Notes under the pieces: generated by a model | Database searches by the model: none | What the model was told of the DNA's origin: nothing | Seen by the model: only the letters and a program-made list of their open reading frames with translations | Source of the DNA: an uncultured Acidimicrobiia bacterium | GTDB lineage: Bacteria > Actinomycetota > Acidimicrobiia > Spongiisociales > ZC4RG35 | Reading direction: 5' to 3' | DNA length: 58,134 bases | Assembly: GCA_964195405.1 (NCBI GenBank) | Contig: CAXMPK010000048.1 | Location: forward strand, 1-58,134 | Shown: positions 1,070 to 41,115 of the stretch, piece after piece | Layout: the number at the start of each line of letters is the position of its first letter | Numbering within the stretch: position 1 is the first letter of the stretch | Made by a program: the position numbers and the translations under genes

Positions 1070-2290
1070 TCAGCCGCGCCCTCCGGCCAATTGCGTTGCA
1101 TAGGCGCTGCGCTTGAGATGAATCATGGCAACGACGCCAAGCGCCGGCCCCAAGGCCAGCACCGGGAACGCCCATCGCCAGCCCAGATTTTCAGCCAGAG
1201 TCGGCACCAATCGAATCGTCACCAATGTCAGAAGAAAACCGACCGCAGTCTGCAAAGTGAGAGCAGTCCCTCTGACCGCGTCCCCAGCAGTCTCAGTGAC
1301 CATCGCTGAGAACTGTGCGCTGTCGGCGACGACAGTGAAACCCCACAGCAACATCAAAGGCATAACGACCCACACCGCGGAACCAAACACAAATGGCGTG
1401 AGAAGCGCGCACGTGCCTGAGATCGCCATCGCTCCCCCGGCGATCTTGGTCCTCCCGTGACGGTCTGCCAGCGAACCCGCCCACCATGATCCAAGACCCC
1501 CGACCGCAATCACAAAGAAGGTGTTAATCGGGATCGAGCCGTATCCAGAACCGGCTCTATCCGCCGAGGCGACGAGGAAAGCGGCAGTCCAGGTCCACAT
1601 TGCGTACAGCTCCCACATGTGACCCAGGTACCCATAGGTCGACAACCGCACTCCCCTGTCGCCGAAAACGCTTCCAACCTGATTCCAGCGAAACCGCTGT
1701 CCCAATGTCTCGTACGGACCGTCCCTCACTCTTGTCATCATGAGGGCCGCGATGACCGTCAGCACCGAGGCAGATATCACGACCCCCCGCCAGTCCAGGC
1801 CGACTCCTCGAACCAGATGTGGCGAAGCCGAACCGATGGTCAAGGCTCCGACCAACACGCCAAGCGCCATTCCCCTCCCCGCCTTGAACCAACCAGTCAT
1901 CACTTTTAAGCCGGAGGGGTAGACACCAGCGAGAAACACTCCGGTCATGAAACGGAGGCCCATACCGACGCTCACCGATGTCGCGGTGATGAGAAGTAGC
2001 CCAAGATTGGCCACCGCTCCGCCAATGGCGCCGATGAAGAACAGACGTCGACTGGGAACGATGTCGGCCACGTTGAGCACCGCTGAGAGTAGGGCCCCGA
2101 CCACAAAGCCGATCTGAACCATCAGGGTCAGACCGGCTACTTGTCCGGTGTCTAGCCCCCACTCGTCTCGAAGCTGAGGCGCTACGGCCGAAGCCGAGAA
2201 CCAAAGACTCAGGGCAAATAGTTGCCCGATGGCAACGAGCGCAAGGGCACGTTTTGGAAACCCGGGAGGATTTGGTTCAGCCAGGGTCAC
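1070..2290 (-). CDS. MFS transporter
   Basis: 406 aa with about 12 hydrophobic spans and typical MFS loop composition. Its GTG start overlaps the upstream stop (GTGA at 2287-2290). Confidence 0.85.
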   Translation of the reverse strand: MTLAEPNPPGFPKRALALVAIGQLFALSLWFSASAVAPQLRDEWGLDTGQVAGLTLMVQIGFVVGALLSAVLNVADIVPSRRLFFIGAIGGAVANLGLLLITATSVSVGMGLRFMTGVFLAGVYPSGLKVMTGWFKAGRGMALGVLVGALTIGSASPHLVRGVGLDWRGVVISASVLTVIAALMMTRVRDGPYETLGQRFRWNQVGSVFGDRGVRLSTYGYLGHMWELYAMWTWTAAFLVASADRAGSGYGSIPINTFFVIAVGGLGSWWAGSLADRHGRTKIAGGAMAISGTCALLTPFVFGSAVWVVMPLMLLWGFTVVADSAQFSAMVTETAGDAVRGTALTLQTAVGFLLTLVTIRLVPTLAENLGWRWAFPVLALGPALGVVAMIHLKRSAYATQLAGGRG

Positions 2291-3385
2291 AGACTGCGAA
2301 GAGTCGCGGCGGTGTCTCCAAGCACGGGATTGTCACCAAACCCGAGGGCCTGAAATACGATTAACCCGACGCCAAACAGCACGCCGGCGATGACCAGCCC
2401 CAGCAGCCATGCCGGCACCTGTCGTCTCGGCTGCGTCTTTTCACTCACCAGCCCAATGTTATTCATGCTGAGGCTCACGCAAGGCCAGCCCTCCCAATGT
2501 TTGGCGTCAGGCCAGAAAGTGCGAGCATCGGATTGGTACGAAGTAAACCCAGGAAGGGTGTCGAGAATCTCTCCTTTCAGAGGTCCGCTGAGAGCCCGGC
2601 CGTTGGCTGATCCCATATTGTGCCCGTCTCATTGTCGACGACGGCGCCATCGACGATTGTGAAGGTGAGAATATCAGCACCAACCCGACGATGGAACACA
2701 CTCCAACGATCTTCGGTGGTCGGGTCGAGAACGATGGCGACGGGCACCCCGGCGACAACATCGTTGGCCGGGCCCGGACTTGACAAAGTCCATAGGGGAT
2801 AGACACCAACTTCCACGGAGAAGTCGACAACTATTGACATATGCCGGAGATCAAACCGGGAGTTCCCTCCCCGAGCGTTCAAGGCCAGCGTTTCAGGATG
2901 GTCCTCCTGCCAGGTCTCCCATGAGGTGAGCTGCGACGCCACCAAGTCGAGACGTTGACCCTTACGAGGCCCGACGATTGCCTCACCAACCGGCTGACTC
3001 CATACCGTGCCTGTGTCGTGGTCCCACCATGTCATGGCGTTGCCCCAGAGTGCCCCTGATTGCCAAAGACCAAGACTTCTTCGTCCAAATCTCGGCGATG
3101 GACCATCGCCGTCCCACAAAGTGGTCACCAAGTCACCAGAACTGGTGAACCTCCGATCCAATCGATCACCATCTCACGACCATTGAGAAAGCTGACCGGG
3201 TAGGCCTTGGCCTCCCCGCCGAGTTCCAAGCCGATGACCATAGTTTCTGGCGACCAATCGGACTGTGCCGCGCTGCGAAACGTCGGGTTGTAAACAGGAA
3301 GAATGGCGTCCCGGGGCAGCACTTGGCGATATCCCGAGACTGTTTCCTTACCGGCGTGGACCGGGTCATAAGTACCTTCGGGCAC
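2287..3385 (-). pseudogene. DUF3179 domain protein, disrupted as assembled: in-frame TGA at 3125-3127 (candidate Sec codon) plus two frame breaks near 3053-3056 and 2605-2606
   Basis: Track ORFs 3125..3385, 2577..3161 and 2287..2616 together cover a DUF3179-like protein: AKAYPVSFLNGREMVIDWIGGSPVLVTW / [TGA]PLCGTAMVHRRDLDEEVLVFGNQ / ALWGNAMTWWDHDTGTVWSQ ... DNETGTIWDQ / NGRALSGPLKGEIL. A C-terminal TM helix follows. See findings. Confidence 0.7.
3093..3111 (-). promoter_or_regulatory. SECIS-like hairpin downstream of the DUF3179 TGA
   Basis: The minus strand reads CGGCGAU-GGUCC-AUCGCCG, a 7-bp stem starting 13 nt after the TGA. The loop occupies nt 21-25 after the TGA, and its GGUC-type sequence resembles the E. 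coli fdhF SECIS apex. Confidence 0.45.
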
Positions 3386-3476
3386 TCCTACCGGTCCGGC
3401 CTCCCCTCACGTGATGATGAACGCACCGGACGCCCTAGCTAGTCCAACAAGTCGGATATCTGGCTTTCACAACTGA

Positions 3477-3504
3477 GAAGGCCCCAGATCAGTCCGAGGC
3501 CTTC
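3477..3504 (-). terminator. Possible weak terminator hairpin after hsp20
   Basis: GAAGGCC-N14-GGCCTTC lies 24 nt past the hsp20 stop. The U-tract is poor. Confidence 0.25.
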
Positions 3505-5968: not shown

Positions 5969-6241
5969 CTAACTGGCCTTCTTGATTTCCTCTAGCCAAT
6001 GCCTTCGGATGCGTCTTCGCTCTTTGGCCGTCTGGCCGCCCCAGATGCCTTCGCTCTGATTGGACTCAATCGCCCAGCTGAGACACTCGTCGGCAACCGG
6101 GCAGGTGGCGCACACGGCCTTCGCCTTGGCTATTGCGAGAAAGTCTTCTCGATTCGGGAAGAAGTTGACCTGGTCCGTAACTTCAAGACAGGCCGCCGCT
6201 TCCCTCCACGGTGTAACTGTCAGATCTATCACTGATGTCAT
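5969..6241 (-). CDS. whiB: WhiB family transcriptional regulator
   Basis: 90 aa with four Cys in the WhiB arrangement (C...CATCPVADEC), followed by GIWGG and a basic tail. Confidence 0.9.
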   Translation of the reverse strand: MTSVIDLTVTPWREAAACLEVTDQVNFFPNREDFLAIAKAKAVCATCPVADECLSWAIESNQSEGIWGGQTAKERRRIRRHWLEEIKKAS

Positions 6242-40092: not shown

Positions 40093-41115
40093 TTAAACCA
40101 CTTCGAGCGACTTCTCAGAAGTGAGTGAACCGATGACCACAGCATCTTCAACGAGTTCCATGTACTGATCGACGTCACCCGGCGACAGCGCCACCAGCAA
40201 TCCCCCACTCGTCTGGGCGTCCGCCAGGATCTTGATCTCCTCTTCTGCCCGCTTGCTCACAACGTGATTTGACACAGCTGAGAGATTGCGACCTGAACCT
40301 CCGGGCCACATCCCCTCGGCGAGCAATTCCGATACACCGTCGAGAACGGGCACCCGGTCGAATTCGATCTCGGCTCCAAGCCCGGATGCCTCACACATCT
40401 CACGAAGATGGCCAAGCAACCCAAATCCAGTCACGTCGGTGACGGCACTTGCCCCAACACTGCTGGCAGCGGTGCCGGCGTCACGATTCAAACGACTCAT
40501 CCAGCCAATGGCTTCGACTTCCAATTCGGGGGGGCAGCGATCTCGTTTGATAGCGGTGGCGATGATCCCCATACCCAGGGGTTTCGTCAGCGCAAGCACG
40601 TCTTCCGGCTGACCGGCACTGTTGGTGAGAACATCGCCGACAGGAGCCAGTCCGGTCAAGGCAAACCCGTAGTGGGGTTCGGGACCGTCGATGGAGTGTC
40701 CGCCGACAACGGTGCATCCGGCGTCGGCCATGACATCCATGCCACCGAGAATCACCTCTGACGCCAGTTCGAACGGCAGCTCGTCTCGAGGCCACGCAAG
40801 GTATTGGAGAGCAGTGAGCGGTTCGGCCCCCATCGCATAGATGTCGCTGAGCGCATTGGCGGCAGCGATCCGACCCCAGTCCCGGGCAGAGTCGACCACG
40901 GGAGCGAACACGTCGATTGTTTGAATCAGGGCGCGTCCGTCTCTCAGCGAAAAAACGCCGGCGTCATCACCCGTCCCGATTCCGACCAGGAGATCAGGGT
41001 GGGTGGTGGAAGGATGTGATTGAACGGGGCTCAGAACCTGAGCCAGCTCGGCTGGGCCGAGTTTGCAGCCTCAACCAGCCCCGTGGCTGTATCCGGTGAG
41101 TCGAATTTCGTTCAC
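40093..41115 (-). CDS. selD: Selenide, water dikinase SelD, with in-frame TGA (Sec) at 41071-41073
   Basis: The track ORF (40093..40911) is N-terminally truncated. Extending the same frame gives (M)NEIRLTGYSHGAG[TGA]GCKLGPAELAQVL...DLLVGIGTGDDAGVF..., which is collinear with E. coli SelD ([17 protein letters not shown]). It is the only in-frame stop between 41115 and 40911. Confidence 0.9.
41029..41061 (-). promoter_or_regulatory. Candidate SECIS hairpins downstream of the selD TGA
   Basis: On the minus strand, CUCGGC-CCA-GCCGAG lies at 41061-41047 and GCUCA-GGUUC-UGAGC at 41043-41029. The second loop occupies nt 33-37 after the TGA. Confidence 0.4.

Follow-up and report, generated by a model that had tools for sequence, protein, structure and literature searches.

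DUF3179 is catalogued as a selenoprotein family of the UxxC/T type in two reviews (PMC9312934, PMC13188914), and the 2022 review credits its reference 63 for the family, i.e. Zhang & Gladyshev, Nucleic Acids Res 2007 (PMC1976440). Members carry the NCBI product name 'DUF3179 domain-containing (seleno)protein'; as NCBIfam contains no DUF3179 model, the '(seleno)protein' name was taken only from database product names. An initial annotation of the DNA analysed here knew of no established selenoprotein status for DUF3179, but both reviews and the product names show that it has one. The selenoprotein status of DUF3179 is already known, and the copy in our window (the whole stretch of 58,134 nt that was analysed) is a known feature in a broken form. 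Little new biology follows from it: catalogues of selenoproteins have included DUF3179 UxxC/T since 2007, and the NCBI names agree with this. The locus shares with the known family the Pfam domain, the Sec position as the first residue of U-P-L-C, a SECIS-type hairpin directly downstream, the existence of Cys-form homologues and a probably Sec-decoding host of the Acidimicrobiia type among the actinobacteria. What sets the window copy apart is that it is a relic: its start and anchor are missing, its frame shifts twice and its stop codon is gone. We conclude that the region is very probably the remnant of a membrane-anchored DUF3179 selenoprotein gene, dead as a gene, in which the Sec codon and the hairpin were inherited intact.

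The pseudogene occupies positions 2485..3410 of the minus strand; its ancestral start codon, a GTG, lies at 3410-3408 and its former stop codon at 2487-2485. The gene belongs to DUF3179: its frame-repaired translation matched Pfam PF11376 with E=2.7e-51 and 175 bits (cut-off 27). When an intact homologue was used as the tblastn query, the window was matched as three pieces in three frames. The N-terminal part survives as a remnant ORF (3125..3385, minus strand), which begins at GTG 3385, comprises 86 codons and ends at the Sec codon. It runs to ...GGSPVLVTW-TGA, and past the TGA the frame continues PLCGTAMVHRRDLDEEVLVFGNQG. The same 86-aa fragment was called by gene callers in five other contigs.

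The TGA in question lies at 3125..3127 (minus strand), where the window reads VTW-TGA-PLCGT and Cys-form homologues read LVTW-C-PLCGTAMVH in the same column. Because the Cys forms (P0003, P0004, P0011, P0015, P0025 and P0052) have W-C-P-L-C-G there, the TGA takes the first Cys position of the CxxC motif; the placement proposed in the initial annotation was therefore borne out by this alignment, together with the PF11376 match. We compared the codon in 83 related genes, mostly from Acidimicrobiia MAGs (80 loci came from GTDB species-representative genomes), with best-segment identities as low as 53%. Several of the related MAGs contain two DUF3179 genes. It was TGA in 81 of the 83 and TGC in the other two, namely L068 and a second gene in L007. 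All 81 TGA genes had open frames on both sides of this codon, running for no fewer than 92 codons before it and for 210-240 codons after it. Among the 120 database homologues listed, about three fifths were fragments of ~207 aa, and every such fragment whose sequence was fetched begins at the Met directly after the TGA.

The competing explanation put forward earlier was that the TGA is a Cys-to-stop nonsense mutation gained during decay. In its favour, decay of the gene is evident and one step is enough to turn TGC or TGT into TGA; against it, the TGA is also present in L001 and L002, the closest intact relatives, and all of the TGA genes combine open frames with a conserved downstream hairpin. 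Since intact relatives carry the TGA with open frames and the hairpin, the TGA is older than the decay, and the likelihood of a nonsense origin is close to nil. Judging from the sequence comparison, what stands at the U of UxxC is a real selenocysteine codon that was inherited. Of the two alternatives that had been offered, a Sec codon or a nonsense mutation in a decaying gene, the ancestral Sec codon and the decay are thus both real, and what fails is the choice between them.

The hairpin, CGGCGAUG-GUC-CAUCGCCG (3093..3111, minus strand), begins 13 nt after the UGA. Its coordinates had been given correctly, although RNAfold lengthened the stem from 7 bp to 8 bp (C3111..G3093), leaving a GUC loop and an energy of -11.7 kcal/mol for the hairpin alone. 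Published values for bacterial SECIS elements (PMC13188914) are an apical loop of 3-9 nt, an upper stem of 4-16 bp, a G in the first two loop positions, a UGA-to-loop distance of 16-37 nt and a minimum free energy of -7.5 kcal/mol or lower. The hairpin falls within all of these ranges, with its loop of GUC (or GGUCC), stem of 8 (or 7) bp, UGA-to-loop distance of 21 (or 20) nt, G in first place and energy of -11.7 kcal/mol. Compared with bacterial SECIS elements (bSECIS model; E. coli fdhF type), it is alike in having a small apical loop with G first and then U, and differs in having no bulged U.

Taken alone, the local fold was unremarkable (z = -1.45 against shuffles), and the significance of the hairpin comes from the comparative data and not from the isolated fold. 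Across 82 sequences the hairpin was almost invariant; 99.5% of cells were paired, and four variants were of the G-U type. Synonymous sites in the stem were frozen (ACG in 81/81, GCG in 80/81, CAT in 81/81 and CGC in 76/81), and the third-codon-position entropy of these codons was 0-0.28 bits, as against 1.3-1.9 bits for most flanking degenerate codons. In both synonymous sites and pairing, conservation of the hairpin structure exceeded what the protein sequence requires. No compensatory covariation was found across the 82 sequences because the stem hardly varies; this makes the covariation test uninformative, so the RNA-level argument rests on the frozen synonymous sites. The Cys form L068 lacks the hairpin. 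We regard the conserved hairpin as a putative SECIS, as had been proposed, and decoding through it would be SelB-dependent. Across the Acidimicrobiia species sampled, the element is almost nucleotide-invariant.

The window also encodes a Sec-type selenophosphate synthetase, SelD (40093..41115, minus strand; TIGR00476, 380 bits), with an in-frame TGA at 41073-41071 in the context SHGAG-[TGA]-GCKLGP and its own hairpin, GGCUCAG-GUU-CUGAGCC. The initial annotation had recognised this gene correctly and had noted the similarity of the two hairpins. As SelD is itself a selenoprotein gene, its presence suggests that UGA is decoded as selenocysteine in this organism. A search for selA, selB and tRNA-Sec within the 58-kb window returned 0 tRNAs and no Rfam match, and no SelA- or SelB-like ORF was seen by eye among its large ORFs. 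In a crude scan of the window for further genes with an in-frame TGA, which is noisy at 59% GC, nothing stood out. Within the strain cluster the selenoprotein gene is decaying stepwise with the Sec-type SelD still intact.

The state of the gene was assessed by DNA alignment to its closest intact orthologues, L001 (JGI 3300006468) and L002 (Logan SRR27456852), the former having 95-98% nucleotide identity to the window across gene regions (~97%). The orthologues share with the window the gene order HSP20 - DUF3179 - small ORF - MFS, the TGA and an identical hairpin. They differ in having a hydrophobic N-terminal anchor of ~30 residues and a frame that is unbroken both before and after the Sec TGA, with a TGA stop after ...HWEG. 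The window copy does not have a frame that is uninterrupted apart from the Sec codon, and four lesions were found on its minus strand. The first is an 89-nt deletion (junction 3404..3405), which takes out codons 3-32, i.e. the anchor (...KVLYGLLAIGLFAFVIVWIVGS... in L001), and leaves the ancestral GTG only 14 sense codons before a stop. The second is the loss of one G from a G-run (G5 to G4, 3053..3056), whose frameshift leads to a stop 31 codons past the Sec codon, compared with 210-240 open codons in the intact relatives. The third, a further 1-nt deletion (CC to C, 2609..2610), also shifts the frame, and the fourth changes the former stop codon (2485..2487) from the TGA of the relatives to TGG. 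The DUF3179 copy in the window is a pseudogene with four inactivating lesions, and the idea that it is a live selenoprotein gene is not supported. The two frame breaks reported earlier are both real, but as an account of the damage they were incomplete, the 89-nt deletion and the stop loss having been overlooked.

Programmed frameshifting was also considered for the two breaks and was rejected: at each of the two sites the intact relatives have one more base and their frame simply continues, and an allele without one of the breaks exists (L085). Substitutions polarised with L002 gave nonsynonymous to synonymous ratios of 12:3 in the window lineage and 5:7 in the L001 lineage, a borderline excess (Fisher p = 0.057, rising to 0.105 when the stop-loss change is left out). 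For the MFS gene the ratio in the window lineage was 8:8.

We looked for the same lesions in other contigs. The junction of the 89-nt deletion was also present in the independent assemblies L083, L084, L085, L086 and L091, and the G-run deletion was common to all five (L083-L086 and L091). The CC to C deletion occurred in L083, L084 and L086, but not in L085, which also keeps the TGA stop. Contigs ERZ27250328, ERZ27250394 and SRR8436516 have all four lesions, a short SRR8436501 contig has both of those within its reach, and one of the contigs that are 100% identical may be the window's own source. In the ERZ27250139 contig just two lesions are present, the 89-nt deletion and the loss of the G, and it thus represents an intermediate stage of decay. 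Exact-pattern scans of a collection of metagenome contigs for the 89-nt-deletion junction and for the TGA-hairpin segment matched nothing; these negatives are uninformative, as the second pattern ought to have hit the JGI contig of L001 itself.

These data bear on whether the gene could be a live selenoprotein gene whose frame breaks are sequencing or assembly errors. Each 1-nt lesion shortens a homopolymer run (G5 to G4 in one case, CC to C in the other), and deletions of this kind are typical errors; homopolymer error does not account for the 89-nt deletion or for the change of the stop from TGA to TGG. Moreover, in near-identical contigs from four further samples each lesion within the covered sequence is present, and a fifth contig has the intermediate allele. 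Over the 3.1 kb of the window aligned to L001, the only indels are the three in DUF3179; the flanking genes, about 2 kb that include the small ORF, MFS and VanW, are free of them, and five neighbouring genes (RimK, AstE, WhiB, acyl-CoA dehydrogenase and MFS) are equal in length to their L002 orthologues. We therefore consider errors of this kind highly improbable.

A further reading is that a shortened product is still made, initiating at GTG 3385, inserting Sec at the UGA and stopping 31 codons on, to give a soluble U-P-L-C fragment of ~117 residues with some residual role. GTG 3385 is directly preceded by an AGGA, and in the pseudogene-bearing strains the remnant ORF, the UGA and the hairpin have escaped damage and show 100% conservation. 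However, with no gap between the AGGA and the GTG the spacing is poor for a ribosome-binding site, and the fragment would be missing its anchor together with roughly two thirds of the domain, invariant residues among them. In addition, lesions are still accumulating (compare L085 with the window), and the segment is entirely missing from L090. A shortened product with a residual role is, in our estimation, very unlikely, and we retain the reading of a dead gene. At this locus the annotation should be a selenoprotein pseudogene, neither several 'hypothetical' DUF3179 fragments nor a live selenoprotein.

In the intact relatives, a ribosome meeting the UGA would find the 8-bp hairpin 13 nt downstream acting as a bacterial SECIS; the hairpin would recruit SelB with Sec-tRNA(Sec), leading to insertion of selenocysteine. 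The intact product is predicted to combine a hydrophobic N-terminal anchor with an all-beta domain that probably faces outward, and its U-P-L-C centre probably either acts in redox chemistry as a selenenylsulfide or binds a metal. In the window copy, the 89-nt deletion drops the anchor and throws the ancestral start out of frame, the two 1-nt deletions shift the frame twice and the stop has become TGG, such that any product would be anchorless and have at most 117 residues.

A PDB sequence search with the family profile gave no match. A Foldseek search of the PDB with the AlphaFold model of a Cys-form homologue gave only weak local matches to Rieske/NirD-like structures (Foldseek probability ~1.0, target-normalised TM 0.5-0.6, sequence identity about 10-14%), none of them at E <= 0.001 (best E 0.013). 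Part of the model resembles the beta-sandwich of the Rieske-type ferredoxin / NirD small-subunit fold, but DUF3179 is without the CxH...CxxH ligand pattern of the Rieske fold, and we treat the likeness as a lead and not as a claim of membership. By eye, in the secondary structure of the model, the C/U-P-L-C-G motif sits in a hairpin loop, which is reminiscent of the Rieske C-P-x-H-G loop. His134, Asp160 and His161 (P0003 numbering) are invariant or nearly so among the homologues. An arrangement in which the U/C-P-L-C loop sits on a Rieske-like beta-domain beside these three residues is unlikely. If it were true, the intact family would be surface-exposed proteins with a metal or cluster ligated via selenium, and not simple thiol-type oxidoreductases; the inactivation in the strain cluster, repeated and stepwise, would point to a recent shift in how available or how necessary that metal or substrate is, and the nearby MFS transporter might handle the same substrate.

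That transporter is intact (1070..2290, minus strand; 406 aa, Pfam MFS_1) and is a syntenic neighbour; a homologous MFS gene was found by tblastn in 27 subjects, window included, and is nearby at roughly a third of loci. Between it and the pseudogene lies a separate and conserved small ORF of 59 aa with one predicted transmembrane helix (2287..2466, minus strand), which is annotated as its own gene of 59-63 aa in both L001 and L002 and was found by tblastn in 13 subjects, window included. Translational coupling of the DUF3179 gene to the MFS gene had been proposed from the GTGA at 2290-2287, but this overlap joins the stop of the small ORF to the MFS start. The small ORF (2466-2287) therefore deserves its own entry in the annotation.

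The remnant DUF3179 ORF runs on the minus strand from a GTG at 3385 to the TGA at 3127-3125, ending ...IGGSPVLVTW, and in-frame reading past this TGA gives PLCGTAMVHRRDLDEEVLVFGNQG. As the initial annotation had anticipated, the frame-repaired translation matched the PF11376 (DUF3179) profile (E=2.7e-51, 175 bits; Pfam cut-off 27). Full-length Cys homologues read ...LVTW-C-PLCGTAMVH at the TGA column and therefore the TGA takes the place of the first Cys of the CxxC motif, where it had originally been put. A protein search returned hundreds of homologues; of the 120 that were listed, about three fifths were fragments of ~207 aa (roughly 56-93% identity), and all those whose sequence was fetched start at the Met right after the TGA (MVHRRDL...), which is the gene-caller output expected for a selenoprotein gene.

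We compared 83 DUF3179 genes, drawn from 80 loci of GTDB species-representative genomes (nearly all labelled Acidimicrobiia/Acidimicrobiales MAGs) and from two closer contigs, L001 (JGI 3300006468) and L002 (Logan SRR27456852), which carry the closest intact syntenic orthologues. The codon at the Sec position was TGA in 81 and TGC in two, the frame of all 81 TGA-form genes extended without a stop for 92 codons or more before this codon and for 210-240 after it, and best-segment identity to the query was as low as 53%. The TGA at 3127-3125 is therefore an ancient codon that has been maintained. The competing explanation, i.e. that a Cys codon had mutated to a stop in a decaying gene, is refuted by the 81 related genes that have TGA, with the frame open on both sides, against two with TGC.

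RNAfold predicted a hairpin at 3111-3093 (minus strand), CGGCGAUG-GUC-CAUCGCCG, with an energy of -11.7 kcal/mol; the position first assigned to it stands, and RNAfold closes one pair more than had been described. The local fold is not unusual by itself (z = -1.45 vs shuffles). The hairpin is conserved in the relatives, with a stem that across 82 sequences has 99.5% of cells paired and departs from invariance only by three single mismatches and four G-U variants, and because it is nearly invariant no compensatory covariation could be counted. The informative signal, as read from the aligned codons, is synonymous-site conservation: the stem codons are frozen (ACG 81/81, GCG 80/81, CAT 81/81 and CGC 76/81, with CGT in 4), and their third-position entropy is 0-0.28 bits, compared with 1.3-1.9 bits in most flanking Gly/Ala/Pro/Leu codons. 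Published criteria for bacterial SECIS elements call for a loop of 3-9 nt with a G within its first two positions, a stem of 4-16 bp, a UGA-to-loop distance of 16-37 nt and an MFE of -7.5 kcal/mol or below (PMC13188914); the DUF3179 hairpin lies within all of these ranges, with loop GUC, 8 bp, 21 nt from UGA to loop and -11.7 kcal/mol. We infer SelB binding and actual Sec insertion at this hairpin.

Several Acidimicrobiia MAGs have two DUF3179 genes each (L007:2106 and L007:3258; locus pairs L012/L016, L020/L074 and L029/L076). In L007 a Cys-form (TGC) gene lies directly upstream of the Sec-form gene and retains the hairpin with one G-U pair, and may be a recent Sec-to-Cys conversion. At the hairpin positions another Cys-form gene, L068, reads GTG-CAC-GAC, and it lacks the hairpin.

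The window also encodes SelD, the selenophosphate synthetase and itself a selenoprotein, at 40093-41115 on the minus strand (TIGR00476, 380 bits), with an in-frame TGA at 41073-41071 (SHGAG-U-GCKLGP) and a hairpin, GGCUCAG-GUU-CUGAGCC, at ~41044-41028 (7 bp, loop GUU, 33 nt from UGA to loop). This gene appears intact, and no selA, selB or tRNA-Sec was found beside it. The initial annotation had thus described the window's TGA, hairpin and Sec-type SelD correctly, and the Sec codon and SECIS hairpin that it located are both real. Its suggestion that DUF3179 was not an established selenoprotein family does not hold: the family is already established, with a UxxC/T motif, in two reviews (PMC9312934 and PMC13188914), the 2022 one crediting it (ref 63) to Zhang & Gladyshev, Nucleic Acids Res 2007 (PMC1976440), and the NCBI product name 'DUF3179 domain-containing (seleno)protein' is already on Acidimicrobiia MAG members.

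The copy in the window is a pseudogene. The intact gene order in L001 and L002 is HSP20, DUF3179 (split only at the TGA), an ORF of 59-63 aa and MFS, and L001 has 95-98% nucleotide identity to the window over gene regions. Comparison with these two contigs revealed four lesions, all on the minus strand. An 89-nt deletion at 3405/3404 has removed codons 3-32, which in L001 specify a hydrophobic anchor at the N-terminus (MRVKVLYGLLAIGLFAFVIVWIVGS...), and has put the ancestral GTG (3410-3408) out of frame, so that reading from it ends after 14 sense codons. The two frame breaks already noted are single-nt deletions: one G lost from a run at 3056-3053, giving a stop 31 codons past the Sec codon, and one C lost at 2610/2609, as aligned to L001/L002. 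The former stop at 2487-2485 has changed from TGA to TGG, and the broken frame therefore continues into the next gene. Over 3.1 kb aligned to L001 the sole indels were the three in DUF3179, with none in the small ORF, MFS (1221 nt) or VanW (606 nt), and the lengths of RimK, AstE, WhiB, acyl-CoA dehydrogenase and MFS were identical to those of the L002 orthologues, so errors are not a general feature of the assembly. When DUF3179 substitutions were polarised with L002 as outgroup, the nonsynonymous:synonymous ratio was 12:3 in the window lineage vs 5:7 in the L001 lineage (Fisher p = 0.057), an apparent nonsynonymous excess that is suggestive only.

An exact look-up with the window's HSP20 protein gave nine contigs from other samples. 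All four lesions were present in L083 (ERZ27250328) and L084 (ERZ27250394), both 100% identical to the window, and in L086 (SRR8436516; 99.94%), and L091 (SRR8436501; 100%) has the 89-nt and G deletions and ends short of the other two sites. L085:4400-5440 (ERZ27250139; ~99%) has only the 89-nt and G deletions, with the CC and the TGA stop intact, and is an intermediate decay stage. L090:780-1207 (ERZ23877837; ~98%) has a different deletion of ~378 nt, which joins window position 3477 to 3098 so that the start, N-terminal half and Sec codon are lost; its first frameshift site still shows five Gs, and a TAA occurs in frame. L090 is a short contig, and its low coverage (2.7x) calls for caution. 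The lesions are real and common to several samples, though one 100%-identical contig may be the window's source, and the gene in this strain cluster is a pseudogene in stepwise decay. L085 and L090 are two alternative alleles of the pseudogene in near-identical strains. An exact pattern expected in the JGI contig L001 gave 0 matches in metagenome_contigs, a collection evidently without all the JGI samples reached by protein look-up.

The N-terminus of intact relatives is basic and followed by a hydrophobic helix of ~20 residues, which suggests that intact DUF3179 is a membrane-anchored, outward-facing domain; a cytoplasmic-membrane location has been predicted for an Idiomarina DUF3179 protein (PMC9230427). 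The AlphaFold model of P0003, a Cys-form homologue (m1e8d7e0006d7), consists mostly of beta structure at high confidence (pLDDT 91.6), and its secondary structure would place C-P-L-C where a hairpin loop joins two strands. In a Foldseek comparison with the PDB the model resembled Rieske ferredoxins and the small subunit NirD only weakly and locally (best E 0.013; target-normalised TM 0.5-0.6), and a DUF3179 profile search of PDB sequences gave no match. In an alignment of 42 homologues Cys125, Cys128, Asp160 and His161 were invariant and His134 nearly so (P0003 numbering). The chemistry of the intact protein is most likely that of a putative selenenylsulfide (U-x-x-C) redox centre, the alternative being a putative Sec/Cys/His metal site.

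Between DUF3179 and MFS sits a small conserved ORF of 59 aa with one hydrophobic helix, from 2466 (ATG) to 2287 on the minus strand, which is a separate gene call in L001 and L002, was found by tblastn in 13 subjects including the window and had no Pfam or NCBIfam match. It seems fused to DUF3179 in the window only because the DUF3179 stop has been lost. The GTGA at 2290-2287, first taken as translational coupling of DUF3179 to MFS, is the stop of this ORF overlapping the MFS start. A homologous MFS gene was found by tblastn in 27 subjects including the window, often on the opposite strand; the DUF3179-MFS association is recurrent, not universal. The window (GC 59%) belongs to an Acidimicrobiia-type actinobacterium, as judged from a WhiB-family gene at 5969-6241 (minus strand) and from synteny with Acidimicrobiia MAGs over RimK, AstE, acyl-CoA dehydrogenase and the M50 and M20 peptidases.
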